Below are positions 3,353 to 34,004 of a stretch of 64,000 nt of DNA, in pieces. Every line of letters starts with the position of its first letter. Within the stretch, counting starts at the first letter, position 1. The position numbers and the translations under genes are program-made. The DNA comes from Minisyncoccota bacterium (GTDB lineage Bacteria; Patescibacteriota; Minisyncoccia; Phycocordibacterales; UBA918), in NCBI GenBank assembly GCA_041389025.1, contig JAWKSP010000002.1:105279-169278 (forward strand), in the 5' to 3' direction. A model generated the notes under the pieces. The model saw only the letters and a program-made list of their open reading frames with translations, searched no databases and had not been told where the DNA came from.

Positions 3353-5161
3353 CTAACCGGTCCAATTAAATAAAAGAATCGAAAAGTCGGTTAGATTTAC
3401 TTTTCCGTCACTGTTTAGATCGGCCGTCGTTGGTTTGTCGGCCTTTTGACCAATTCCATAGAATAGATAATCGGAAAAGCCGGCCTTGCTACCATCCGAT
3501 TGCTCAGCTTTTGCTCTGACTTTATACGTACCTGTATTGAAATCAGTAGCATCTAGAGTTGTTTTCCATGCGCCATTTGAGTCAGCTGTAACATTGATAG
3601 TTTTTAAACTTGGAGCTGATTTATCTTTCATGTTTTCAATCGTTACCTCAGAACTAGCCAAGGCGTAACCACTTATCTCAAAAGTTTGACCAGACTGAAC
3701 TGGGTCTGGATCAACTCTTATTGTTGGAGTAACAACAATATTTGAAAGAGAAGTTGTTCTGGCACCGGAAACTGTAAACGAAGTATTGAAGGTTGAAGAC
3801 TTTGTGTCATTTTTATCCAATACATAAACACCAAAGGTGTATACACCTCGGGCTATTTCATCTAGAGTTACAGAAAATATTCCATCTGCATTACCTTTCT
3901 TAGTTGCAACTTCAGTTCCATCGACCAAAGCTACTATAGTTGAATTCGGATAAGCCTTTCCGGAAATAATAACTCTACCATCACCACTTCTATAAGGTCC
4001 TTCGGATGACTCAAAACCACCACCACCGGAACTACCGCTACCGCCACCAGACCCACCACCACCACCACCACCGGAACCTCCAGAACCTGAATCACCACCA
4101 GAAGTTGGTTTTTCGCCGTCTGACGAACCTGATGTTCCTCCACTACCATCACCACTTCCGGTACCGTCATCACCACTTCCGGTACCATCACCTTCAGTTT
4201 CTCCTTCGGTATTTGAAGTTCCGGTTGGAATATCCGTCACTTGAAATTGTATAAGATAGTCATCAATATTAAAGTTTCCTTCATCATCAATACACCTAAC
4301 GTAAAATGATTGAGTGGAGTTTGGTGTGACAGAAACCACTGTAGTGTGGTAAATCAAACCGGTATTGGAAAAACCGTTGATCATAGAAGCATAGTCAGTT
4401 CCCGGAACGGTGTCGTATCGACAGAAAGCAAACTCGTCGGTTTCCAAAAATATTTCCACACTTTGTGTTACACCGGTAACTGTGGAAGATGGAGCTCCGT
4501 TAAAACGGTATGGGGGGATTTCCTCAGTAGTATCAATCGGACCCACTCCAATCTGACTTATCAGTGCGATAACGGGTTTAGCGCTAGCTACCAAACTACC
4601 ATCGTATATGTTTAAAGTCATTTTTTTTGTTCCCACCGTATCCGCATTCACAATCGGAACTATATCCGCCGGCGTAGTGGTAGTGCCGGTTGAGGTACTA
4701 TAAGTAACACTAAAGTTATTTGCCTTTGACGTATGATTGCCAATCATTAATTTTAATTGTGAGTCAGCTGATATTCCACTCGAGGTATTTAAAGTATACT
4801 TGATAAGGCCTGGTGTACCAGAAAAAATCTCTACCCCATCACTACTAGCCGACCGTGTAGCCGAAGAATTTCGCAGTACCTCGTCAACATAAAGTTCCAC
4901 GTTTCGATCAGCTGAAAATGTTGATGTGCCTAACGTTTCAAAACCAGTCGGCGGCACCACTTCAATGTAACTATTTGGTCCAATTCCGGTTTTTAATGTA
5001 AAAGAAATCGTGTGATTTGCAGCTTGGTCAGGAGCAGAGTTAGAAATTACATTTTTATAATTAATTATATTGGCGGCATTGACTTGTTCTGTTGAAAAAA
5101 ATAAGAACAAAAAACCAAAAACCAACCCAAGGAGATAAGTTTTTTTTAAAAACCAGTTCAT
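3353..5161 (-). CDS. Large secreted protein with a signal peptide, Ig-like beta domains, a long Gly/Ser/Asp linker, and a C-terminal dockerin-like calcium-binding repeat.
   Basis: Signal peptide MNWFLKKTYLLGLVFGFLFLFFSTEQVNA. The linker is GTGSGDDGTGSGDGSGGTSGSS...GGGGGGGSGGGSG. The extreme C-terminus TADLNSDGKVNLTDFSILLFNW fits the dockerin type-I repeat (D-x-N-x-D-G-x-V-N-x-x-D). Only one repeat is visible. Confidence 0.65.
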   Translation of the reverse strand: MNWFLKKTYLLGLVFGFLFLFFSTEQVNAANIINYKNVISNSAPDQAANHTISFTLKTGIGPNSYIEVVPPTGFETLGTSTFSADRNVELYVDEVLRNSSATRSASSDGVEIFSGTPGLIKYTLNTSSGISADSQLKLMIGNHTSKANNFSVTYSTSTGTTTTPADIVPIVNADTVGTKKMTLNIYDGSLVASAKPVIALISQIGVGPIDTTEEIPPYRFNGAPSSTVTGVTQSVEIFLETDEFAFCRYDTVPGTDYASMINGFSNTGLIYHTTVVSVTPNSTQSFYVRCIDDEGNFNIDDYLIQFQVTDIPTGTSNTEGETEGDGTGSGDDGTGSGDGSGGTSGSSDGEKPTSGGDSGSGGSGGGGGGGSGGGSGSSGGGGFESSEGPYRSGDGRVIISGKAYPNSTIVALVDGTEVATKKGNADGIFSVTLDEIARGVYTFGVYVLDKNDTKSSTFNTSFTVSGARTTSLSNIVVTPTIRVDPDPVQSGQTFEISGYALASSEVTIENMKDKSAPSLKTINVTADSNGAWKTTLDATDFNTGTYKVRAKAEQSDGSKAGFSDYLFYGIGQKADKPTTADLNSDGKVNLTDFSILLFNWTG

Positions 5162-5928: not shown

Positions 5929-7737
5929 CTAATCCAATAAAAAACCTCCGGATTGATGTTGCCACAATTTAGCATATACTCCGTTTGCATCTTTAAGTTC
6001 GGTGTGTTTCCCGTCTTCAATTATTTTCCCTTCTTCCAAAACAATTATTCGGTCCATTTCCCTTAAAGTAGAAAGTCTGTGAGCAATGGCAATTACTGTT
6101 TTCCCTTCCATCAGATTATGAAGAGCTTTTTGTATAAGAATTTCACTTTCACTATCGAGAGCTGAGGTGGCCTCATCTAATATAAGTATTGGAGCGTTTT
6201 TAAGCATTGCTCTAGCTATGGCTACTCGTTGTTTTTGACCACCGGACAATTTCACTCCACGCTCTCCTACCAAAGTATCATAACCCTCCGATAATTTACT
6301 GATAAATTCGTGAGCATGGGCTTGTTTCGCCACTTCGATAATCTCTTCGTCAGTAGCATTTGTATTACCGTAAGCAATATTTTCTCTTATCGTCCTATGA
6401 AACAAAGCCGGTTCTTGTGGTACCACGGCTATATTTTGCCTTAAAGAATCCTGTGTTACTTTTGAAATATCTTGTCCATCGATTTTTATTAAACCAGAAT
6501 CAACGTCATGTTGGCGTAAAAGCAATGACACAAAAGTAGACTTACCAGCTCCGGACGAACCAACCAACCCAACTCTTTGACCACCCTCTATACTTAAGTT
6601 AAAACCTGTAAAAACTTCATTATTCTCAAACTGAAACGACACGTCGTTCCAATCAATTCTTCCATTATTTACCACCATATCTGTTGCATCTTTGACATCC
6701 ACAATTTCGTGATTTACTAGTAAATCATCAAGGGCCTCCTGTAACTCACCAATTGTTTTAGCCATAGCATTAAAAGCTCTACCTATAAATATAAGTGATC
6801 CAGAAATATTAAATATTAAAGCCGCTACCATCACAAAATCACCAGTACTTATTTCTCCTAACGACCACTTGTTAGTAACTAACCAGAAAATACTAAAGGA
6901 AAAAGTAAATAATATAAAAGTATTGATAATTAATAACTTTTCTGTATAAAACCAATTATTTTTATGTGCTATCCTTCGTTTATCAGTTAATTCTTTTAAA
7001 TCATTTATCTCTTGTTCGTACTTAGTATATTGTCTAACTGCACTTATATTTGTTAATCTATCAATTATTCCTCCACCTAGTAAAGTATTAGCCTCTGAAC
7101 TTATTTTTGAAAGCCTAGTTTTCTCAGGAGCAAGTTTTTTATTTGTAAGATAAAGCACAAATATCAAAATTATGAATAAAAAAGATGATGTGCCATCTAC
7201 TGAAAATATAAGTGAAAAAGTAACTAAAAAGCCAACAAATGAAGCTAGTTGGGCCCACAAAAAATCAGGAATAATTTCATCTACAGCTCCTATAATGTTT
7301 CTCAGTTTACTTGAAATTGAACCAGCAAATCTATTCGAGTAATATGAATGACTATGTTTAAAAATATACGAATTAACGGTGTCTACAGCCGTTTTTGCAG
7401 TTTTTGTTGTCCAATTTGCAGCTACAAAACCACTTAAACGATAAGTTGCTTGTATAACAAATAATGTAAGTGGTAATACTACACCCCAAAACATTGCTGA
7501 TTTTGTATCACCTTTTTCTGCAGCATCAACTATAAGTTTAAAAATATAGCTTGTACCAGAACCAACTGAAGAAGCAATTATTACCAAAAAAATAGCCGAA
7601 AAAGCCCAAATCTTATGAGGTTTTGATGAATACACAAAAAACCGCCACGGAGTTTTGGGAATAGTATTTTCTTTTTCGTTTATTGTTTTATTCATAAAGT
7701 AAATTAACGCCTTAATCAGCGCTATTTTAATATACAC
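5929..7737 (-). CDS. ABC exporter, fused permease plus ATPase (MsbA/multidrug type).
   Basis: N-terminal 6-TM domain. Walker A GSSGAGKST, ABC signature LSGGQKQRVAIARA, Walker B ILILDEATSALD. Confidence 0.9.
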   Translation of the reverse strand: MYIKIALIKALIYFMNKTINEKENTIPKTPWRFFVYSSKPHKIWAFSAIFLVIIASSVGSGTSYIFKLIVDAAEKGDTKSAMFWGVVLPLTLFVIQATYRLSGFVAANWTTKTAKTAVDTVNSYIFKHSHSYYSNRFAGSISSKLRNIIGAVDEIIPDFLWAQLASFVGFLVTFSLIFSVDGTSSFLFIILIFVLYLTNKKLAPEKTRLSKISSEANTLLGGGIIDRLTNISAVRQYTKYEQEINDLKELTDKRRIAHKNNWFYTEKLLIINTFILFTFSFSIFWLVTNKWSLGEISTGDFVMVAALIFNISGSLIFIGRAFNAMAKTIGELQEALDDLLVNHEIVDVKDATDMVVNNGRIDWNDVSFQFENNEVFTGFNLSIEGGQRVGLVGSSGAGKSTFVSLLLRQHDVDSGLIKIDGQDISKVTQDSLRQNIAVVPQEPALFHRTIRENIAYGNTNATDEEIIEVAKQAHAHEFISKLSEGYDTLVGERGVKLSGGQKQRVAIARAMLKNAPILILDEATSALDSESEILIQKALHNLMEGKTVIAIAHRLSTLREMDRIIVLEEGKIIEDGKHTELKDANGVYAKLWQHQSGGFLLD

Positions 7738-23581: not shown

Positions 23582-24304
23582 ATGAACACAGATGTTAAAT
23601 GTAGTAGTCACACAAGATTCCCTTTAACAGTTTACTACATAATTTCAATTGGAGTATTTGGTATTTTTTGTCTTTCATACGGGTACGATTTAAAGGTCTT
23701 AGAAAAAACAACCTGGACTACAATAAATACCGTTTTATTTTTTCTACTTTTTTTAGGAGCTATTATCACTCTAGTGATATCATCTTTGCTAAATAGTGGA
23801 AATTTTATAAAATATTTTTTTGTATTTCTAGTTCTTTTCCTGTTGGTTGGATTATTGACAATCATATACCTACCCAATAACAATCATTATTCAGTTATTG
23901 GTAACAAGACAACATACTCTAAGCTTGTTTTTAGAAACCCATTAAAGCATAGCCACGCTATTACCATAAATAAAGAATATGGTTTTGACCGTTTGACTTT
24001 TGAAGTGACAAGACAAGATTTGACAAAATACAAGATATCTTTAATTGGTAATCATAAACTTAATCTAGAGAATGAGGAAGAATTACTGCAGATAGTACGA
24101 TTGGCAGAAGCTGCAAATCTTACTCCAAACGAATTTATTAATAAATATCAAACGAAGCAAATAGTAAATGTTGTAAAAAACTATTTCCTTGATGAAAAAT
24201 CTAAAAATCTTCAATTATTCCTACAAAAGAATCTTGATTTAAGTGAATGGTTTTTAGTCCATAAAAAAGGAAGTATTCAGATATTGGAGTTAGAAGAATT
24301 ATAA
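23582..24304 (+). CDS. Hypothetical polytopic membrane protein.
   Basis: About 4 TM helices in the N-terminal half. Confidence 0.5.
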   Translation: MNTDVKCSSHTRFPLTVYYIISIGVFGIFCLSYGYDLKVLEKTTWTTINTVLFFLLFLGAIITLVISSLLNSGNFIKYFFVFLVLFLLVGLLTIIYLPNNNHYSVIGNKTTYSKLVFRNPLKHSHAITINKEYGFDRLTFEVTRQDLTKYKISLIGNHKLNLENEEELLQIVRLAEAANLTPNEFINKYQTKQIVNVVKNYFLDEKSKNLQLFLQKNLDLSEWFLVHKKGSIQILELEEL

Positions 24305-24445
24305 AATATTTTATGGCAATAACTTACGGGTACTGAAACATTTTGGTACCCATTTTATTTTCACAGTTTACACAAACCCACCACTTATGATATAAAGTTG
24401 ATCTAAGTGGTTCTTTTTATTTTTTAAAGTAAAGAAAGGAAAAAA

Positions 24446-24712
24446 ATGAGTGTGACAACACATGAAGTTTTAGTTTTTTTAAACAAACAAAGTAACACAA
24501 CTGATATAAACTATCAAACTCTTAGGAAATTAAGTGTTTCATTAAGTACATACTTCAGTAAGATAGCAGTTGAATTAAAAGATATAGTTATTGAAATATA
24601 TAGTATTCAATATCTCCAAAACTCGAGTCACTGTACTATATTGTGTGAGATAAATGGTGAGAAACTTAAAATTTTCACTCCAAGAAACACAGTGACCAAA
24701 GTTAAAGTATAA
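24446..24712 (+). CDS. Small hypothetical protein.
   Basis: ORF only. Precedes the sipW cluster on the opposite strand. Confidence 0.3.
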   Translation: MSVTTHEVLVFLNKQSNTTDINYQTLRKLSVSLSTYFSKIAVELKDIVIEIYSIQYLQNSSHCTILCEINGEKLKIFTPRNTVTKVKV

Positions 24713-24814
24713 AATACTCCACTTAGAAAACCGGCAGTAAACATATGTTTCTGTCGGTTATTGTTTTAATAACAACTTAGTAACATTTAGCTTTTAAATT
24801 AAAGCAATCTAAAA

Positions 24815-26518
24815 CTATATTTCAATCTCATCTATAACCACTGTTTCCTCAATCTTTTTTTCTGGTTCTTCTATCACTTCTTCTACAACTTCATTATTCT
24901 CCTCAACTAATTCTTCTACCACCTCCTCAACAATAATTTCTTCCACAACATCAACCTTAGTTTCGCTAGATTTATCATTTACATCGGCTTGTTCATTAAT
25001 ATTATTTTCTTTTTCTTCTTGGTTATTTTGATTAGTATTTTGCTCTATTTCATTTTCATCTATTTGTCCTAACATCTCTTCTTTATCTTCGGTTGGTATG
25101 GTTGGCTTTTCGATAAATTCCTCTATTGTCTGTTCTTCTCCATTTTTTTCTTCACTATCGTTACTAGAAATAAAGGTTTGACTATCAATTACCAGTGGTA
25201 GAGTCATGGCTGGCTCAGCAATATTTCTAGTAAATTCAAAAGTTACAATTTCAGTGTCAATATAACCGCTGCCAGCCGTCTCACCATCAAGATAAGCGGT
25301 AAATATTAAATCTACTATACAAGGTGTTACTCCATAATAAAAATCAGATAAAGAAAAATCTAGTAAGAAGTCATTACCAATAATGGTCTCAGTTTTATTT
25401 AAATTAAGCAGATTTCCATTGTAAGAAAGCGGCGCTTCTGCTTTAACAGTAATCAAACCACACAAAGCAGAAGCGCCGCTTTCTTTTACTTCAATTTTAT
25501 AAACCAAACTCTCTTTTACTCGATTATCTAAATCAATACTAACCTCTGTAGTAGTGGTACCCAAAATATTATCATCTTCAGTCAAGAAATTTGTCTTAGA
25601 AGCAAAAATTGAAAAATCAACAGCTGTTGCCTGCATGCTGTTTGCAAAACTAATTTCTGTATCAGTTGGATAAGCAAAGGTAGTCATGTCTCCCAACATT
25701 TGCATAGAAACAAAAACCAGCAATACAAACCCCGCCACTACTGTTGAAGCCTGCGGTCTAATATCATGTGAAAAATTATAGCTATTTTTTTGTTCAACTA
25801 TCTTACCAGTAGAAGGTTCTATCATTTTTCTAGTTTTACCAGTTGGTTCTATATCCATTTTTTTTGTTTTAACGACTCTAGTTGGTAAATCAACTTTTAA
25901 GTTAACTTTTCTTAATGAATTTGCTGTTTGTATTTTTTTTACTTTTTGCTTTGAGCTATTTGGATCATAAGGAGTAATCACCAGCGGCACGACCATATCT
26001 TTATCAAATCTAAGTCCACGCATTCTTCTCACTTCCAACCAAATTTTTATTAGTTCATCTAGAACAATCAAAAAAGCCGGAATACCAACCAAAAGCCCAA
26101 AACCCAATGGTTGTCTGGCAAAATCAAGCATAAAACCAACGTACGGTATATCAAAGACTACTTTTCCAATAACATCACCGGCCGGTACCGGTTTTGCGTC
26201 TCTATCTTCGTTGGCGTCACCTTTGGTTATAAAATAACTCTTTCCATTTATATTTTCAGTATCAATTATCCTATGTGTAGTCGGAATCTTAGCGTTTTTA
26301 TCTGCAAAAGTGATAATATCACCAACTTTATAACTTTCAATTTCATGAATAGCCACCACTGCTCCAGTCATAATAGTTGGCTCCATCGAACCAGATTTCA
26401 CTATTTTAACTTCAATATTTCCAACCCCTGGAATTGGTGGCGCCATTAGCAAGAAAACCAAACCCAAAACGATTAGGATAAAAATTGTATAGGTGATATT
26501 ACTAATAATTTTTTTCAT
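24815..26518 (-). CDS. sipW: Archaeal/ER-type signal peptidase I (SipW-like, S26B) fused in frame to a TasA-like module that has its own internal SipW-cognate-type signal sequence and an acidic C-terminal tail.
   Basis: N-terminal 190 aa: TM, then VKIVKSGSMEPTIMTGAVV...IPTTHRII...FITKGDANEDRDAKPV..GKVVFDIPYVGF, then a second TM. These are the SipW / S26B catalytic Ser and His boxes. It is followed by a basic linker and VVAGFVLLVFVSMQMLGDMTTFAYPTDTEISFANSMQATAVDFSI, which resembles the GAFFSDTETS..N.FTAG..DL motif of the downstream paralogues. No stop codon separates the two parts. Confidence 0.8.
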   Translation of the reverse strand: MKKIISNITYTIFILIVLGLVFLLMAPPIPGVGNIEVKIVKSGSMEPTIMTGAVVAIHEIESYKVGDIITFADKNAKIPTTHRIIDTENINGKSYFITKGDANEDRDAKPVPAGDVIGKVVFDIPYVGFMLDFARQPLGFGLLVGIPAFLIVLDELIKIWLEVRRMRGLRFDKDMVVPLVITPYDPNSSKQKVKKIQTANSLRKVNLKVDLPTRVVKTKKMDIEPTGKTRKMIEPSTGKIVEQKNSYNFSHDIRPQASTVVAGFVLLVFVSMQMLGDMTTFAYPTDTEISFANSMQATAVDFSIFASKTNFLTEDDNILGTTTTEVSIDLDNRVKESLVYKIEVKESGASALCGLITVKAEAPLSYNGNLLNLNKTETIIGNDFLLDFSLSDFYYGVTPCIVDLIFTAYLDGETAGSGYIDTEIVTFEFTRNIAEPAMTLPLVIDSQTFISSNDSEEKNGEEQTIEEFIEKPTIPTEDKEEMLGQIDENEIEQNTNQNNQEEKENNINEQADVNDKSSETKVDVVEEIIVEEVVEELVEENNEVVEEVIEEPEKKIEETVVIDEIEI

Positions 26519-26523
26519 GTTTT

Positions 26524-27726
26524 TTATGTATTTTTATTCCAATCAAAACGGAAAAATAAACTATTAAATCTATCTCTTATTGACTTAGTAAAGAAATTTT
26601 CTTCAACTACCACTGGATAAAAATTTTCACTTTGCCCAGAAGGAAGACCATCATCGTCAGTATTATCGTTTTCGTCGTTAGAATTCCCTGGGTTTGAGTC
26701 ATCATTATGATCATCATCATTACCATGACCGTTATTACCTTTTGGTATACATGGTTTGCCATTTTGATCTACATATTCTTGTCCTAAAGCTTCGTATTTA
26801 ATCTGCCCAGAAGGAAGACCCTCATCGTCAGTATTATCGTTTTCGTCGTTAGAATTTCCTGGGTTTGAGTCATCATTATGATCATCATCATTACCATGAC
26901 CGTTATTACCTTTTGATTTTAATTTACAATAATTTTGTGGCGGTACTTTTTTATCACAAGAAAAACCTTCATTATATTTAGCTTGTACTGCTCGCAAGGA
27001 AACATCAACTGTCATTGAATCAGTTTGGCTTTCGTTACCCATCATTTTTCCGTCACAATTAACTTCTGCCGTATCAGTATTTACCATCAAATCTCCAGCA
27101 CACCATAATATACCCACATAATTAACCGAACCAGCCTTACAATAATTACCAGAATTAGAATAAGTGTTAGCTACAGCGTAAGTAGTACTAGCCAATAATA
27201 CATTAGCAGTTTTTGTACTGGTACCAAAAATTATCCTTTCACCAACCTCAAATTTATTGTCTCCATCGTCTTGCCAAGCAAAAAATTGTAGGTTTTGTGA
27301 TAATTCTCCACCAACTTCAGTATCCACCAATCCTTCCGGCTCGTTTGTACCATTTTCATGATCTTCTAAGTTGCTAAAATCAAGGCAAACATAAGCATCA
27401 TTCTTTTTTACATGCAAACTAATCAAATGTTCTCCTAAGTCACCTGGTTTAACATCATTAAAATTGAAAAATTTATCTGCTTTTGGTACTAGATTTTTAG
27501 CTTCCCAAGTAAGTGACGGTTGCAAAACACCATTATAAATTGCTTTACTTTCTACTGTTAGTTCTAATCCGGTTTTTTTATCTTTAGAATTATTATCTTG
27601 ATAATTACCGGTAGCAAAAGTGTAGCCGGCGTTAGCTCCGCTAACGCCGGCTACCACCAACAATAAAACTACTACTCCAACCAAAAGTGAAACTTTAACT
27701 CCTTTCTGGTAGATAAAACTTGTCAT
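26524..27726 (-). CDS. Secreted TasA-like paralogue. It shares the FNFNDVKPGD..ISLHV..NDAYVC...ENGTNEPE core with the other paralogues. It contains a duplicated 57-aa His/Asp/Asn-rich module.
   Basis: Core homology to the three upstream paralogues, including LGNESQTDSMTVDVSLRAVQAKYN. The N-terminus ...VAGVSGANAGYTFATGN is atypical. Confidence 0.7.
   Translation of the reverse strand: MTSFIYQKGVKVSLLVGVVVLLLVVAGVSGANAGYTFATGNYQDNNSKDKKTGLELTVESKAIYNGVLQPSLTWEAKNLVPKADKFFNFNDVKPGDLGEHLISLHVKKNDAYVCLDFSNLEDHENGTNEPEGLVDTEVGGELSQNLQFFAWQDDGDNKFEVGERIIFGTSTKTANVLLASTTYAVANTYSNSGNYCKAGSVNYVGILWCAGDLMVNTDTAEVNCDGKMMGNESQTDSMTVDVSLRAVQAKYNEGFSCDKKVPPQNYCKLKSKGNNGHGNDDDHNDDSNPGNSNDENDNTDDEGLPSGQIKYEALGQEYVDQNGKPCIPKGNNGHGNDDDHNDDSNPGNSNDENDNTDDDGLPSGQSENFYPVVVEENFFTKSIRDRFNSLFFRFDWNKNT
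26635..26919. repeat. 171-bp tandem direct repeat, about 1.7 copies and over 95% identical, inside gene 26524..27726.
   Basis: The unit starting CCCAGAAGGAAGACC at 26635 recurs at 26806. It encodes KGNNGHGNDDDHNDDSNPGNSNDENDNTDD(E/D)GLPSGQ twice. Confidence 0.85.
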
Positions 27727-27788
27727 GTAATAGTTTTTTTAGACTTTATACTACTTTAATGATTAATTTACTAAACCTTTTTTTAAAC

Positions 27789-29168
27789 TTAATTTGGTAT
27801 AACCGCACAGTTAAGTGCACTAATAGCATCTAGGTCATAACCATCGGCGGTTGCTTCAAATGGTGCTCGTGGTGATACGTCAGTTATTCTTACATATTTG
27901 GCCCAAGACAAACCAGAGCTTGCTAAATCAGCTTCTGAGTCACGATCTACACTAGCGGTTACTAAATACCAATCAAGCCCATCCTGACTTACCTCAATTT
28001 TAATTTTTTCTACCGGATAACTACTACCACCAGTTACTTCCCAAGCTCGCAAATCATTACCTGGCCCATCCACTATATAACCATCATCAAACTCAACTGT
28101 AATCCACCCTCCTTCAGTCTCGTTTTCATCTGGGTTAAAACCAAGACTAAAGAAGCTATTTGGTACAACTGGATTATCAAATGGTGTACCAAGACTTTGT
28201 GGAGCACCGATTACGTAAGATTCCACTGAACGACCAGCGTCTACTGGAGCACCATTTTTCTTTACTCCCTGTGACACTGCTATTACCTTGGTGGCGTATG
28301 ATTGTTCTGGTGTACAAGCCACTTGATTTGGTCTACATACAAAATCAGAATTATGTCGCGCTTGTACCGCACTAAATGACACATCTGCAGTTAAAGAGTC
28401 GGTTTGACTTTCGTTACCAAGCTTCGCTCCACTACATAGAAATCCTCCATCAGCTGGTTCACCCGCTTCTCCGTTATTATCGTTATCGTCAGCTGGACTC
28501 CATTCGTCCACCTCACCATCCTGATCTAAAGCTTGTGGTTCCATATCACCAAAACACCATGCTTTACCAATATAATAGGTCTCAGTTCCATTTATAGGAC
28601 CACCAAGAGCATTTTCATTCCAAATGTTAGTGTTTGAGTCGGCTAGCGCGATTGAATATGCTTGACCAATCGGTAGAGACCCAATTGGGGCTGGACCGGA
28701 AATTATCTCTTCATCATCCTCATAGACATTATCACCATCGTCAGCCCACCAAATGAAGTTTACCAAACCAGCCAACTCACCTTCGTCATCATCGATTGTT
28801 TGGTCAACCAAAGCCTCCGGCTCTGTTTGACCATTTTCATTATTTGAAGTTAGGGTTACATCAGCACAAACAAAAGAATCATTATTTTCTACGTGGATAG
28901 AAATAGTATCTTCACCATAATCCCCTGGCTTCACATCATCAAAATCAAAGAATTTTTCAATGGTTAAATCTTTCTTTTCCCATGATGTATTGTCGTTAAA
29001 AAGACCATTGTAATAGCTTTCGTTGTCTATCAGCAAGTCAATTGCTCCGGCGGTAAAGATGTTGTCGGTGGAGTTTTCTGTATCATTAAAAAAAGCTTTA
29101 GTCACCCCAAAAGCCGTAACACTGGCGGTTACCAAAATCATTGCCAAACTTAGAAAAATACGTCGCAT
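27789..29168 (-). CDS. Secreted TasA-like protein with a SipW-cognate signal peptide and a C-terminal beta-sandwich (galactose-binding/discoidin-like) domain.
   Basis: N-terminus MRRIFLSLAMILVTASVTAFGVTKAFFNDTENSTDNIFTAGAIDL. Core FDFDDVKPGDYGEDTISIHVENND. The C-terminal domain ...GGWITVEFDDGYIVDGPGNDLRAWEV...WAKYVRITD...ADGYDLDAISAL is called from its pattern only. Confidence 0.7.
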   Translation of the reverse strand: MRRIFLSLAMILVTASVTAFGVTKAFFNDTENSTDNIFTAGAIDLLIDNESYYNGLFNDNTSWEKKDLTIEKFFDFDDVKPGDYGEDTISIHVENNDSFVCADVTLTSNNENGQTEPEALVDQTIDDDEGELAGLVNFIWWADDGDNVYEDDEEIISGPAPIGSLPIGQAYSIALADSNTNIWNENALGGPINGTETYYIGKAWCFGDMEPQALDQDGEVDEWSPADDNDNNGEAGEPADGGFLCSGAKLGNESQTDSLTADVSFSAVQARHNSDFVCRPNQVACTPEQSYATKVIAVSQGVKKNGAPVDAGRSVESYVIGAPQSLGTPFDNPVVPNSFFSLGFNPDENETEGGWITVEFDDGYIVDGPGNDLRAWEVTGGSSYPVEKIKIEVSQDGLDWYLVTASVDRDSEADLASSGLSWAKYVRITDVSPRAPFEATADGYDLDAISALNCAVIPN

Positions 29169-29278
29169 AATCAGATTTCTTAATTATTAAATTAAATATT
29201 TTTTAATTTATAAAGCCCCCCAGCTAATAATCTTAATAAATTTATAAACTCAACGCGCTGATTCCCCTTTTCAGCCCA

Positions 29279-29307
29279 CTGAACATCTTAAACTTTAAGA
29301 TGTTCAG
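29279..29307. promoter_or_regulatory. 29-bp near-perfect palindrome, CTGAACATCTTAAA-C-TTTAAGATGTTCAG, in the intergenic leader between two tasA-like genes. Candidate operator or attenuator hairpin.
   Basis: Two 14-bp perfect inverted arms. It is embedded in a leader element conserved with the region 30860-30920. Confidence 0.45.
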
Positions 29308-29330
29308 AACGGCTAAATATAATCAGTTTT

Positions 29331-30812
29331 TTAGTTAATTGGGCAATCTGCCAAACCAGCTAAAATATTTTCAAGATCAGAAAACTCAGCGGCTGTAAAG
29401 TAATGAGCTGGTGAAGTAGCAATACCTTCTAGGAAAGTATTATTTACTCCATCACCAATACCAACTACGTATATAGTAGTACCGGCAGCTTTAGCGGCGT
29501 TAGCAGCTATTACAGCTGTTCCTTCGTCATCTGGTACACCATCAGTCATGATAAGCATAAAATCCGGTGCTTCTAAGACATCATCCCGGTCGCGTACACC
29601 AGAAAGCTCGGTTGATGCTAGACTAATACCAGCAGCTAGATTGGTAGTACCCCCTGAAGACAAGGCGTCAATAGCGGTATTGATATCAGCTAACACGTCA
29701 GTCAATTGTGAGTTTAAGGTAGCACCAAAATCAAAGTCCACCACACCAATGTGGTTGCCAGGGGTAGCTGGGGCTAATGCAGAAGCAAAAGCTTTCGCTG
29801 CAGTAGACATAACCCCTAACTCAGCAGGACTAATGCTACCTGATGAGTCAAGTACAAACACTACGTCATTTTCTTCGTTACAAGCCAATCCTCCATCTCG
29901 CTCATCACAAACAAAGTTTGGATTATTTCGAGCTTGTTCAACTCGAAAAGCAATATCAGCTGTCATACTGTCTGTTTGAGCTTCGTTCTTCATAGTTGAG
30001 CCATCACAAGTAACAGTTCCTTCAATTGAGGCGTCGATAGTACCAGCACACCAAGCTAACCCAATATACTGTGTAGTAGCCCCAGGGAAAGGAGTACCAG
30101 TAGTTGAATCTGCCAAAGTATAAGTTCGTCCACCAAGTACATCACTAGCTGGCCCAGAAACATTTGAGAATAGTTTTGGTTCTCCAGTCTCCCAAATATT
30201 GTCTCCATCATCAGCCCACGCAAAGAAAGTCATATTTTGAGCCAACTCTCCATCAAAATCATCGTTATTGTCCTCCGCCACGTCACCACTTTCAAGTTCC
30301 GGCTCAGTTGAAGAGACATCATCATTTTTAGTAATATCTACATCAACACACATCCATGCATCGTTATTTTCAACGTGTAATGAAATAGTGTTTTCACCGT
30401 TATCACCTGGTTTAACATCTTCAAAATCAAAGAAAGTATGAACTCCATCTTCAAGATCAGTCAAAGACCAAGTTCCAGCACAAGCATCACCAGCTTGTGG
30501 GACGTTAGCTGGGTTGGCAGTGTTGTAAGCAGTGTTGGCTGTGTCAATATCTTCACCATCTTTTAGTGCCAAATGAGCTGGTGTATCACCTTCTTCTGGC
30601 ACCCATTCAATAATATCTTCATCAGTCCAAGCACCATCAAAACAAACCAAACCATTGATATGCGCTACGCTGTCAACTTTTAGATCTAAAGCACCGGCGG
30701 TAAAGACGTTACCGGTAGAAGTCTCGGTGTCAGAGAAGAAAGCTCCAGTACCAGAAGCGACCAAAGCGACCGCAAATACGATCATTCCTAGACTTGTAAC
30801 AATTTTTTTCAT
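29331..30812 (-). CDS. Secreted TasA-like protein with a SipW-cognate signal peptide and a C-terminal von Willebrand factor A (vWA) domain carrying a MIDAS motif.
   Basis: N-terminus MKKIVTSLGMIVFAVALVASGTGAFFSDTETSTGNVFTAGALDL. The vWA part is VVFVLDSSGSISPAEL... (D-x-S-x-S MIDAS) ...MIMTDGVPDD...IYVVGIG. Confidence 0.8.
   Translation of the reverse strand: MKKIVTSLGMIVFAVALVASGTGAFFSDTETSTGNVFTAGALDLKVDSVAHINGLVCFDGAWTDEDIIEWVPEEGDTPAHLALKDGEDIDTANTAYNTANPANVPQAGDACAGTWSLTDLEDGVHTFFDFEDVKPGDNGENTISLHVENNDAWMCVDVDITKNDDVSSTEPELESGDVAEDNNDDFDGELAQNMTFFAWADDGDNIWETGEPKLFSNVSGPASDVLGGRTYTLADSTTGTPFPGATTQYIGLAWCAGTIDASIEGTVTCDGSTMKNEAQTDSMTADIAFRVEQARNNPNFVCDERDGGLACNEENDVVFVLDSSGSISPAELGVMSTAAKAFASALAPATPGNHIGVVDFDFGATLNSQLTDVLADINTAIDALSSGGTTNLAAGISLASTELSGVRDRDDVLEAPDFMLIMTDGVPDDEGTAVIAANAAKAAGTTIYVVGIGDGVNNTFLEGIATSPAHYFTAAEFSDLENILAGLADCPIN
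30690..30812. repeat. Copy B of a roughly 125-bp duplicated gene 5' end, 2 mismatches from copy A at 32450..32572.
   Basis: Base-by-base comparison shows only 2 substitutions. It encodes the identical signal peptide MKKIVTSLGMIVFAVALVASGTGAFFSDTETS. Confidence 0.9.
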
Positions 30813-30922
30813 AGCTATTTATTATTTGTAAAGTAATTAATTTTTTACTAAATATCATGCTGTCCCCTCCAGCCCGCCAAATTCCAGCCACCAGACTGAA
30901 ATTCGGAACGGCTGAGTAGGAT

Positions 30923-32572
30923 TTAGTTGTGCGGAAAAGCACTCACTTCTTCAGGTATAAAGTCAACCTCGTCTGTGCCACCAGTTTGAGCAGCTCCACC
31001 ATTTGGACCCCAGAAGTTGTTAATAGCGTTAACATTTCCTGCTAAGGCGCCATAGGTATTTAACATTGTTCCATCCAAGAAATTATTGAACTGCACAGTG
31101 GCTGGATTCGCATCGTGTGTCGAATCTGCCCCAACAGCTTCTGAACCAGGTACTGTATGTTCAAATTCATTGTATTGAACAGTTACTCCATTAAGTCCAC
31201 CAATACCGGCAGTGTTACCGTCGATGTCGTTATACTCGATTACAATAGTTCCAGTGTGTGGATTGGTGTAAATACCAGTTGTTAAATCGTGAATATGATT
31301 TCTAACAATATCTACATTTGAATAGGTAGCAGCGGTTACTGTCTCAACTCCACGTGAACTAGCCTCACTTAAACCATCAATGTCGTTGTAAGAGACTTCA
31401 ACGTTACTTAAATCACCATTAAGGTAAACAGCAGCGTTGGTTCCCAAGAAAGAACCTGGATTAATCACAAAACCAGTAAGTGTCACATCATCTGCCTCAA
31501 TAATCACACCGTTCTGGATGGTAGCTGTATTAGTCGGGCCATTCACAGAAGCTAGGGTTAACGGTTTATCAATAGTCACTGTTTCATCATAGCTACCGTC
31601 CCCAACACAAACAACGTCACTTGGTGTAGCACTATTAACCGCATCTTGAATTGACTGACTATCATCAGCTACCGTAACGTCACAACTTGGTGCCACATAG
31701 TCAGACAAGGATGCTCCTACCAGTTGACGTGGCTCTTGCCCTCCATCAAGTGGTGGTAAAGAAGCACATCTAAACGCATCGTTGTGACGAGCTTGCACCG
31801 CATGGAAAGCTACATCAACTTCGATACCATCGGTTTGAGCATCATTATGGTCGCCTTGCGCGCCAGTACAAGCAAATCCGGTATTATCAACAGTCGGTGC
31901 CCCATAATCATCTTGAGGCACTGCATCAGGTGAAATATCACCAAAACACCATCCTTTTCCAATGTAAGCGGTTTCTCCACCAGAGAACGGTTCGTCACCT
32001 GACTCAGCCAAAGCTAGCCAGTTACCTGTAAAGATTTCACTTGAAAGACCACTTAAAGCGTCGATGATTTTTTCATCATCTTCCAAGACATTGTCTCCGT
32101 CATCGTGCCAGAAAAGGAAAGAAAGATAATTTTGCAGCTCTCCTTCGTCAGCGCCGGCTGTGTTATCAACGTCCACTTCTGGCTCAGTCTGATCATTTTC
32201 CGGCGTTCCGGTCAAGTCAAACGCCATACAGGCATAAGCGTCATTGTCGTTCACATGCAAGGAGATAGTATCTTCACCATAATCCCCCGGTTTTAAATCA
32301 CGGAAGTTAAAGAAGAGCTGATCCGTCAAATCAGACAACTCCCACGAATTACTGTCGTTTGGTCCCCATACACCAGTCGCCTGATCTAGCGGGATAGCTG
32401 GGTTATTCCAATCAAACCCATAGCTGGAATTATCAATCAAAAGATCAATAGCTCCGGCGGTAAAGACGTTACCGGCAGAAGTCTCGGTGTCAGAGAAGAA
32501 AGCTCCAGTACCAGAAGCGACCAAAGCGACCGCAAATACGATCATTCCTAGACTTGTAACAATTTTTTTCAT
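30923..32572 (-). CDS. Secreted TasA-like protein with a SipW-cognate signal peptide and C-terminal right-handed parallel beta-helix repeats (pectate-lyase/NosD-like).
   Basis: Same N-terminus as the downstream paralogue. Core NFRDLKPGDYGEDTISLHVNDNDAYACM. The C-terminal part has repeated V/I-x-N-x-I segments: VTLTGFVINP, VEVSYNDIDG, DIVRNHIHD, IVIEYNDIDGN, VTVQYNEFEH. Confidence 0.75.
   Translation of the reverse strand: MKKIVTSLGMIVFAVALVASGTGAFFSDTETSAGNVFTAGAIDLLIDNSSYGFDWNNPAIPLDQATGVWGPNDSNSWELSDLTDQLFFNFRDLKPGDYGEDTISLHVNDNDAYACMAFDLTGTPENDQTEPEVDVDNTAGADEGELQNYLSFLFWHDDGDNVLEDDEKIIDALSGLSSEIFTGNWLALAESGDEPFSGGETAYIGKGWCFGDISPDAVPQDDYGAPTVDNTGFACTGAQGDHNDAQTDGIEVDVAFHAVQARHNDAFRCASLPPLDGGQEPRQLVGASLSDYVAPSCDVTVADDSQSIQDAVNSATPSDVVCVGDGSYDETVTIDKPLTLASVNGPTNTATIQNGVIIEADDVTLTGFVINPGSFLGTNAAVYLNGDLSNVEVSYNDIDGLSEASSRGVETVTAATYSNVDIVRNHIHDLTTGIYTNPHTGTIVIEYNDIDGNTAGIGGLNGVTVQYNEFEHTVPGSEAVGADSTHDANPATVQFNNFLDGTMLNTYGALAGNVNAINNFWGPNGGAAQTGGTDEVDFIPEEVSAFPHN
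32450..32572. repeat. Copy A of the duplicated gene 5' end. See 30690..30812.
   Basis: Near-identical to 30690..30812. Confidence 0.9.
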
Positions 32573-32951
32573 AACTAAGATTTTGTTATTAATTATTTAA
32601 TTAAGTTTATAAATTCACCACGAATTTTGTTAAAAACGCTGGAGACAAAACCAACCATTAAACGTTTTGTCACCCATAAGGAATAGTGTAAACCGTCTGA
32701 CACAAAGCTTTAAATCGTTCAATAGTTACCTGAAGCAACTAAAAACTTGACAGTCTTTTTGTGGAAAACTTTTAATTAAATTGCTAGAAATAAAAATACT
32801 TTAAAAAATAAACCTGTTGATAAAGTGTAGATAAACTATGCATAACCTCTGTATAAAGTGTGGATTTCGGGTTAATAAAATGTTTATTGTAAAAATACGA
32901 CACAATTTTGTAGAGAAGTAAATAATTTTTTTGGTTTTTTTGAGTAATTTG

Positions 32952-32985
32952 ACTTGAAAAGCGTGGCGCCGTAGGCGCCACGCAA
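32952..32985 (-). terminator. GC-rich hairpin GCGTGGCGCC-GTAG-GCGCCACGC with flanking A/T runs. Candidate bidirectional terminator downstream of gene 33047..33424.
   Basis: 10-bp perfect stem. AAAAAAAA follows on the + strand and CTTTTCAAG on the minus strand. Confidence 0.5.
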
Positions 32986-33046
32986 AAAAAACCGATTGAG
33001 CACAAAACTCAATCGGTGTTATCTTAATATCATAATTTAATCCTTT

Positions 33047-33424
33047 TTACTTCCCTCTTTTCCCTCTCAACCACAATGCAAAGCAAAGTAATGGAAACAC
33101 GTTGTCATTATCTTTAAACTCATCGTTAAAAGAAGTAACCTTGTTGATCCAGCTTTTAATGTTTTCACTACTTAAGATATCCTTACTGGACAATATATCC
33201 TTAAACTCATCAAGTAATATCAATACAGTAAGGTTAGCCCCTGAGGCTTTCTCTTCAATTTCTACTTTATGAAACTTATCGGCAATAAAGTTTATATCCC
33301 GATAGAACCATTCCATAAAGTTAGGTTCATTAATACGTGGATGATTTTTTTTATCGGTATTTAAAAATTTATTGCGCAAATTTGTAAAGAACTCTGTAAT
33401 TGGACTTTGTTTTATAGATTCCAT
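33047..33424 (-). CDS. Hypothetical protein.
   Basis: ORF of 125 aa with no recognisable motif. It is divergent from gene 33613..33987. Confidence 0.45.
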   Translation of the reverse strand: MESIKQSPITEFFTNLRNKFLNTDKKNHPRINEPNFMEWFYRDINFIADKFHKVEIEEKASGANLTVLILLDEFKDILSSKDILSSENIKSWINKVTSFNDEFKDNDNVFPLLCFALWLRGKRGK

Positions 33425-33515
33425 TTCTCCACCCTCCTCAAAAAAGTTTTATCATGAAATCAATAATATTTAAGCAGACAAACTACAGACCTGTCAACTT
33501 TTTTAATACTTTAAT

Positions 33516-33544
33516 TTGACTTTTTGCATAAAAATGTAATAATT
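33516..33544 (+). promoter_or_regulatory. Sigma-70-like promoter TTGACT-N17-ATAATT upstream of gene 33613..33987.
   Basis: A -35 TTGACT at 33516-33521, a 17-bp spacer and a -10 ATAATT at 33539-33544, about 70 bp upstream of the ATG. Confidence 0.45.
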
Positions 33545-33612
33545 TTAATTGGAATAAAGTAGTTTCCAAATTAATCTTTACATATGCTCATATTAACAAA
33601 AGAGGCTATGAA

Positions 33613-33987
33613 ATGAGACAAATAATTTGTAGAGTCAACAACGGATTTCATTACGTTTTAAGAAGAGGACTCAGAGAAGACGAAAAAGTGCTGAAAAGAC
33701 AAGGTGTTTTTAAGGACAGCACAGAAAACAGATCCTTAACAGAATCTGAAACCAAGAAGGTTTTAGAAGTTTTTAAGAATAAAGCTGATTTAATCGGTAG
33801 AGATTGGTTAAATAATCCAGCGAAACGAGGAGTAATAAAATTAGTATACCTATTGAGAAATGGATGCGAAGTTATCATAAGAGTAACCAATAAAGAGACA
33901 AAAAAGACAGAGCAATTCTCAATAATATTTGGAATAAGAGAGTCAAAACTGAGTACTTTTAGTCCAACAAATCCAATTAATTACTAA
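33613..33987 (+). CDS. Hypothetical protein.
   Basis: ORF of 124 aa with a promoter and a terminator. No recognisable motif. Confidence 0.5.
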   Translation: MRQIICRVNNGFHYVLRRGLREDEKVLKRQGVFKDSTENRSLTESETKKVLEVFKNKADLIGRDWLNNPAKRGVIKLVYLLRNGCEVIIRVTNKETKKTEQFSIIFGIRESKLSTFSPTNPINY

Positions 33988-34004
33988 ATAAACCAACTGA
34001 AAAA

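Follow-up and report, generated by a model that had tools for sequence, protein, structure and literature searches.

The described systems closest to the locus reported here are two operons of Bacillus, tapA-sipW-tasA of Bacillus subtilis and sipW-tasA-calY of Bacillus cereus. In B. subtilis, the signal peptidase SipW cleaves TasA before residue 28, and residues 28-38 are the donor strand that enters the next subunit (PMC9674648). Deletion of residues 28-38 of TasA abolished the fibres, and the N-terminus of TapA is similar (PMC9674648). The B. cereus paralogues TasA and CalY copolymerise into mixed filaments (PMC13082335). TasA homologues in Patescibacteria were already noted by a Pfam survey (PMC9245690), and our literature search found no paper describing the Paceibacteria operon considered here. 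The present study concerns a 64,000-nucleotide stretch of DNA from a Minisyncoccota bacterium (GenBank assembly GCA_041389025.1, contig JAWKSP010000002.1, positions 105,279 to 169,278), called the window below, in which two adjacent TasA-like genes of one operon, termed A and B, are nearly identical over their first 122 nucleotides (nt) and divergent beyond.

The operon resembles those of Bacillus in its jelly-roll-like secreted subunits with a SipW-type signal peptide (TIGR04088 and the N-terminus of PF12389), in the dedicated archaeal-type signal peptidase encoded in the operon, and in having more than one paralogous subunit per operon. It differs from them in several respects. The Paceibacteria operon has four to five subunit genes, the cores of its subunits are about 300 residues long with large insertions, and most subunits add C-terminal domains (beta-helix, VWA, discoidin-like or SpaA-like). 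In contrast to the SipW of Bacillus, the peptidase carries a long C-terminal extension.

Three other systems are relevant to the sharing of sequence between paralogues. In tufA/tufB and the rRNA operons, paralogues of the same genome are more alike than orthologues through repeated conversion. The likeness to the present case is concerted evolution within a genome, but those are whole genes of identical function, whereas here a 5' end of about 120 bp is concerned and the bodies of the genes are 43% identical. In the pilE/pilS system of Neisseria, pilS is silent and promoterless, and the variable part is converted in a programmed process that depends on a G-quadruplex. Here too the genes affected by the apparent conversion are pilus- or fibre-type subunit genes that share a conserved 5' part; however, they are complete, co-oriented operon genes, the conserved part is the one converted, and no specialised machinery is evident. 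The babA/babB/babC paralogues of Helicobacter pylori have near-identical end segments, including the signal-peptide end, and a divergent middle. They are homogenised by RecA-type non-reciprocal recombination between dispersed loci, with adhesin switching during infection. The likeness is segmental conversion among surface-protein paralogues with divergent bodies, whereas the genes of the window are adjacent in one operon and share only the 5' end. Gene conversion is mentioned in reviews of the H. pylori outer membrane proteins, e.g. PMC3960876.

The shared 5' ends of genes A and B

The two genes and the two copies of the shared tract are located as follows.

30923..32572, minus strand: gene A, operon gene 1, 549 amino acids (aa), in which a TasA-like core lies between a SipW-type signal peptide and a C-terminal right-handed beta-helix (NosD-like)
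29331..30812, minus strand: gene B, operon gene 2, 493 aa, in which a TasA-like core lies between a SipW-type signal peptide and a C-terminal VWA domain
32451..32572, minus strand: probable conversion tract, gene A copy, gene nt 1-122, with the perfect 96-nt part at 32477-32572
30691..30812, minus strand: probable conversion tract, gene B copy, gene nt 1-122, with the perfect 96-nt part at 30717-30812

Anchored at the ATG on the minus strand, A and B were fully identical over nt 1-96 and differed at 2 of the first 122 nt. The first difference, at nt 97 (G in A at 32476, A in B at 30716), gives Ala33 in A and Thr33 in B, and the second, at nt 120 (A in A at 32453, T in B at 30693), is synonymous. 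Past nt 122 the next mismatch is at nt 124, and background identity is reached by about nt 140. The shared product of both 5' ends is MKKIVTSLGMIVFAVALVASGTGAFFSDTETS. On the other side of the tract, the sequences 5' of the two ATG codons are unrelated with the exception of TAGyT. A repeat finder independently paired the two copies (family D2, 30682-30842 and 32442-32602, 91%). The first-pass annotation of the window had reported two differences in the first 122 bp, an identical signal peptide in both genes and about 40-50% protein identity for the remainder, and these statements hold, the protein identity of the shared core being 43% over 411 aligned residues in a codon-aware alignment. The pairwise identity profile that it proposed also placed the identity at the 5' end only, since the nt identity outside the tract was 53%, 20-codon windows beyond the tract were mostly 45-65% identical and the longest identical run beyond the first 141 nt was 10 nt. 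When the vector of matches and mismatches was shuffled 5000 times, the maximum run was 27 nt, compared with the 96 observed. The A/B tract is thus far beyond chance. The C-terminal domains of the two proteins, beta-helix/NosD-like in A and VWA in B, are unrelated.

Homogenisation had previously been ascribed to the secretion-signal end. The signal peptide (about 23-24 residues) is indeed included, but the tract also takes in the first 8-17 codons of the mature part. Purifying selection on a peptide keeps amino acids, not synonymous sites. Where A and B have the same residue, the codon was also the same in 37 of 38 cases in the tract (first 41 codons) versus 46 of 88 in the core (Fisher p = 1e-7). 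Since synonymous sites are identical in the tract and not in the core, the identity is not explicable by amino-acid constraint.

Recurrence of the pattern in related genomes

The comparison set consisted of 80 loci from species-representative genomes and six more obtained via exact look-ups. Family genes were called with a hidden Markov model and each was anchored on the conserved Asp of the AFFxD motif, and the 123-nt 5' segment was compared with the core in 111 within-locus pairs. At least eight other genomes showed the pattern of the window, among them the following.

L016: 5' nt identity 0.96, longest run 106 nt, core aa identity 0.43
L017: 5' nt identity 0.95, longest run 32 nt, core aa identity 0.46
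L003: 5' nt identity 0.92, longest run 83 nt, core aa identity 0.48
L011: 5' nt identity 0.88, longest run 56 nt, core aa identity 0.62
L049: 5' nt identity 0.96, longest run 105 nt, core aa identity 0.79
L005: 5' nt identity 0.93, longest run 50 nt, core aa identity 0.73
L001 (genes 2 and 3): 5' nt identity 0.89, longest run 24 nt, core aa identity 0.57

A weaker version was found in L018, L036, L044 and L041. Within the tract, paralogues of the same genome were 0.80-0.98 identical, whereas orthologues of different genomes were 0.5-0.8 identical. The cores showed the reverse and sorted by orthologue clade in the identity matrices, with the core of window A grouping with L016:7984, L017:437 and L044:8082, and that of window B with L001:3271, L003:7097, L016:9976 and L044:9910. 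Paralogues therefore group together inside the tract and orthologues outside it. Among pairs with 40-60% core identity, a 5' identity of at least 0.85 occurred in 5 of 86 within-genome pairs but in 2 of 9573 between-genome pairs, and both of these exceptions involved the sister metagenome-assembled genomes (MAGs) L016 and L017. Such within-genome 5' identity with clade-sorted cores marks concerted evolution that is limited to the 5' segment.

The affected pair was operon genes 1 and 2 in nearly every case. The 3' ends of the tracts are clustered, at nt 122-143, where the conserved FTAGA(I/L)DL motif ends, while the 5' ends lie at nt 1 (window), 18 (L016), 42 (L003), 69 (L011) and 84 (L041). 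The core common to all tracts, about nt 60-125, covers the last part of the signal peptide and the first part of the mature protein. Tracts with variable end points recurred independently in L016/L017, L003, L011, L049, L005, L001, L018, L044 and L041. Variable tract ends speak for ordinary homologous recombination and not for a site-specific process.

These comparisons bear on the proposal that selection at the nucleotide level keeps the 5' coding regions identical, as a target of a trans-acting RNA or protein or because an mRNA structure is required. The identity does cover synonymous sites and begins near the start codon, where translation-initiation features act. The region is not conserved between genomes, however, with identities of 0.5-0.8 even where the cores of the orthologues are 60-80% identical. 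The three paralogues of L001 encode nearly the same peptide, yet only 19-27 of 37-38 codons are identical. In addition, the tract ends differ among genomes as described above, and no Rfam family matches the tract region. Selection of this kind is highly unlikely to be the cause.

A second proposal is that short-read assembly of the metagenome collapsed or mis-joined similar 5' ends, which would create a false consensus or a false tandem. The first-pass annotation had itself named such an artefact as a danger to its claim. The window is a single contig of a MAG, and a 96-nt exact repeat is the kind of sequence where assemblers can switch paths. No second assembly of the species was found in exact look-ups of A, B and P0001 (the record of gene B) in a contig index, and two metagenome scans, one with an exact 32-mer of the tract and one with a degenerate pattern encoding MIVFAVALVASGTGAFF, gave no match. 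Both copies nevertheless lie on one contig, 1.6 kb of unique sequence apart and with intact reading frames, and they differ at two positions within 122 nt. One false join inside the repeat is unable to yield the order of A body, intergenic element and B. The same pattern was present in MAGs of different studies and assemblers (NODE_ and k141_ contigs, JGI), and between the sister MAGs L016 and L017 it was inherited with few substitutions. Synteny also backs the order of the operon, since L083 has A, C, D and sipW along with the same genes downstream, and L001 has B-type genes, C, D and sipW, where C and D are the further TasA-like genes described below. Hence we regard an assembly artefact as very improbable.

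The gene content of the operon varies. L083, the operon with the closest A orthologue, contains A, C, D and sipW and lacks a B-type gene, and L001, the operon with the closest B orthologue, contains three B-type genes, C, D and sipW and lacks an A-type gene. Downstream of sipW, the window and L083 show synteny. This variation in content indicates that unequal exchange occurs here, and it could favour a one-off chimera, in which a single unequal crossover or partial duplication put the 5' end of one gene on the body of the other and nothing was recurrent. The shared stretch of L001 is in line with such an event as well, because it includes the upstream intergenic region. In the window, on the other hand, the upstream regions of A and B are unrelated, whereas a single crossover carries the upstream region along. 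In other genomes, genes of each clade possess their own homologous 5' ends, so that homologous sequence was replaced, which amounts to conversion. Independent, genome-specific tracts in at least seven lineages further argue for recurrence, and a one-off chimera is accordingly unlikely.

Two observations were made on L001. The 97 nt upstream of genes 2 and 3 (L001:3187-3283 and L001:4794-4890) are about 95% identical; they comprise an intercistronic element and an AT-rich leader and are more alike than the 5' coding parts (89%). The homogenised stretch of L001 thus takes in intergenic DNA too. Separately, L001 and L002 are two independent assemblies of nearly the same locus, in which the first codon of gene 1 is CTG in L001:1919 (JGI contig) and ATG in L002:1916 (ENA contig), and the gene caller truncated the JGI product because of the CTG codon.

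Probable gene conversion of the 5' module

The best explanation, which we consider likely to be correct, is an operon with recent interlocus gene conversion of the 5' module that has recurred across lineages. Recent gene conversion or recombination homogenising the 5' end had been suggested in the first-pass annotation, and two lines of evidence now support it. Synonymous sites are identical only inside a discrete tract that exceeds the remainder of the paralogues in identity, and the grouping is by genome for the 5' ends but by orthologue clade for the cores. In the proposed mechanism, non-reciprocal homologous recombination would copy about 100-125 bp from the 5' end of one gene onto that of the other. 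The limits of the tract would be set both by homology and by selection. As to homology, AFFSDTETSTGNxFTAGAxDL is the most conserved motif of the family, and only the 5' segment would be similar enough in nt sequence to nucleate or resolve a heteroduplex, because it holds this motif. As to selection, replacement of the 5' end would spare the diverged cores and the unrelated C-terminal domains, whereas deeper conversion would overwrite the cores. With recurrence in many lineages, the 5' module would evolve in concert within each genome and the bodies as separate orthologue lines. Once homogenised, an identity of 96-122 bp should also raise the odds of further exchange.

Three points weigh against this explanation. 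The tract of the window rests on one MAG contig. The direction of transfer is not settled by the similarities of the tract to A-type and B-type relatives, since the identity to their 5' ends is 0.80 for the closest A orthologue (L083), 0.70-0.71 for the B-type genes of L001 and 0.79-0.80 for the B-type gene of L003. Finally, the tract begins right at the ATG, with unrelated DNA upstream, so that a crossover inside the first codons would be required for conversion; this is plausible, ATGAAAAAAATT being common in the family.

A system of silent cassettes like pilS was also considered and was rejected because every copy is a complete gene, the operon is stable throughout the class and there is no neighbouring integrase or recombinase. 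In the window both copies are full-length, in-frame and co-oriented, and there is no recombinase within the operon.

The operon and its genes

Three further genes of the operon follow A and B.

27789..29168, minus strand: gene C, operon gene 3, 459 aa, TasA-like paralogue
26524..27726, minus strand: gene D, operon gene 4, 400 aa, divergent member of the family core
24815..26518, minus strand: gene E, 567 aa, of which the N-terminal ~170 residues correspond to an archaeal/SipW-type signal peptidase I

Judged by sequence, A and B are TasA/camelysin-like secreted proteins with SipW-type signal peptides. On the model of SipW-dependent signal peptides, TIGR04088, A scored 24.0 bits and B 24.6 bits (cut-off 19), and both signal peptides are of the SipW type with the AFF-D-E motif. 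On PF12389 (camelysin/TasA), A scored 25.4 and B 33.2 against a gathering score of 22.5, with matches to profile positions 4-52 of 196 only, and gene C was below the cut-off. The proteins have a TasA-like beta-sandwich/jelly-roll core. No match at E <= 1, and no TasA, came up when PDB sequences were searched with a profile of the core alignment. A query of the 50 N-terminal residues matched solely designed Kelch-like repeat proteins, which we judged spurious.

Gene A corresponds to P0121, named 'TasA family protein' by NCBI, and gene B to P0001, named 'vWA domain-containing protein', both from the same Candidatus Paceibacterota MAG. Homology searches with A and B returned more than 2800 relatives, and those with a source name were Patescibacteria (Nomura-, Kaiser-, Giovannoni-, Zambryski- and Adlerbacteria). 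In 73 of 83 related loci, a SipW-like open reading frame (ORF) accompanied tandem TasA-like genes, of which there were up to five per locus, and the gene order of the operon is conserved across the class. Within this conserved Paceibacteria operon of four to five TasA-like genes and sipW, A and B occupy the first two positions.

Gene C has a signal peptide of its own, MRRIFLSLAMILVTASVTAFGVTKAFFNDTENS, does not share the tract and is weakly F5/8 type C-like at its C-terminus. Gene D differs at its N-terminus (..GANAGYTFATG..) and contains an internal tandem repeat rich in Asp and Asn. At the DNA level a direct repeat of 119 nt, 96% identical and with a period of 171 nt, was found at 26626-26744 and 26797-26915, and the repeat unit, in the C-terminal part, is the Asp/Asn-rich KGNNGHGNDDDHNDDSNPGNSNDENDNTDDxGLPSGQ. 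A terminator scan also picked up a perfect 15-bp stem with a 3-nt loop (GTAGCCGGCGTTAGCGGAGCTAACGCCGGCTAC) at 27622-27654 on the minus strand, inside the 5' part of gene D, where its N-terminal hydrophobic segment is encoded.

Gene E scored 118 bits on TIGR02228 (cut-off 51.85) and remained under the cut-off of the Bacillus SipW equivalog (115 vs 190). Its residues ~175-567 form a long C-terminal extension with a second hydrophobic segment and a TasA-like TFAYPTDTE motif, and the tail is very acidic and rich in Glu, Val and Ile. Matches to the extension fall within the SipW ORF in most relatives. In L056, L076 and L020 they lie at residues ~40-300 of shorter ORFs, and there the extension may be a separate gene.

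The intercistronic stem-loop element

Two copies of a structured element were found between the genes of the operon.

30848..30927, minus strand: intercistronic element between A and B, a long stem-loop starting a few nt past the A stop codon
29250..29328, minus strand: intercistronic element between B and C, second copy

The element begins a few nt downstream of the stop codons of the upstream TasA-like genes of these operons. From 5' to 3' it consists of a pyrimidine-rich strand, an invariant AGCCGUNC, a hairpin, an invariant GYGGGCUG and a purine-rich strand that closes the outer helix. The sequence of the inner hairpin differs among genomes while its pairing is kept, and the outer helix also covaries. 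In 38 distinct copies, compensatory changes were present in 16 of 22 pairs, and 92.6% of the cells were paired compared with 40-52% when the partners were slid by 1-3 columns. The two copies in the window fold at z = -3.9 and -5.6. A covariance model identified 57 copies, that is, 55 beyond the window (e.g. L001:3176-3253, 4784-4860 and 6481-6557). All copies are on the gene strand save one weak antisense match, and the matches that were cross-checked adjoin TasA-like genes. In the window the model gave only two matches, both within the operon.

No match to the element was found in Rfam 15, and the only matches to Rfam at E <= 1 within 24000-34000 were meaningless ones of microRNA type located elsewhere. 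In a scan for promoter and terminator consensus sequences the counts were at shuffle level, and the 'terminator' inside the tract was a weak 5-bp stem. We propose it as a novel candidate RNA element between the cistrons of the TasA-like operons of Paceibacteria, probably a signal for intercistronic mRNA processing, stability or termination. A role like that of integron attC sites was rejected, since the element is strand-specific and lies at a fixed distance from stop codons; the stability of the operon across the class, the completeness of the gene copies and the lack of an adjacent integrase or recombinase also speak against it. Deletions or duplications may use the shared 5' ends and the repeats of the element as handles.

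The signal peptide and a putative donor strand

The first-pass annotation had taken the tract to mark the signal-peptide region as being under strong constraint. This view is justified for the AFFSDTETS...FTAGA motif, which is found family-wide and is the only motif common to the whole family. It does not extend to the hydrophobic region, which varies freely between genomes (7 of 32 residues differ between the window and L001), and the DNA identity is no evidence of constraint. The DNA identity of the signal-peptide region would instead be due to conversion. The suggested fit to a dedicated peptidase is real at the protein level, given the TIGR04088 match and the sipW gene of the operon, but is distinct from the question of the tract.

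By analogy with TasA of B. subtilis, A and B would be cleaved after G23 or A24. The homogenised FFSDTETSxGNVFTAGA would then be a putative donor strand for fibre assembly. Residues 21-40 were disordered in the predicted model of the monomer, and this predicted disorder is consistent with the donor-strand reading. If so, conversion would hold subunits 1 and 2 to the same peptidase and acceptor groove, so that both could enter one fibre. The two subunits would stay interchangeable at the N-terminus while their C-terminal domains differ.

Meaning of the finding

The process is classical, textbook interlocus gene conversion, and the finding is a new instance of it in a poorly studied system that changes no concept. 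For the family itself, it means that in a large uncharacterised group of surface proteins of the Candidate Phyla Radiation (CPR) the N-terminal module evolves in concert while the bodies diversify. This is the pattern expected if several subunits share one processing and assembly interface. It is also a warning for phylogeny and orthology in this family, because the 5' ends group by genome.

A more far-reaching reading, which we hold to be doubtful, is a modular cassette, in which the 5' module (signal peptide and donor strand) and the stem-loops would serve as recombination handles by which subunits are gained, lost or swapped. The swapped subunits would bear adhesive domains (beta-helix, VWA, discoidin-like or SpaA-like) and use one peptidase and one polymerisation interface. 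If true, episymbiotic CPR bacteria would possess a fibre for host attachment whose tips are exchangeable.

Returning to recurrent conversion of the 5' module, the operon of multiple TasA-like subunits with its structured intercistronic element is a candidate attachment fibre in bacteria living on other cells. Through its recurrence across a class of CPR bacteria, concerted evolution becomes linked to what is presumed to be the assembly interface of this unstudied fibre.

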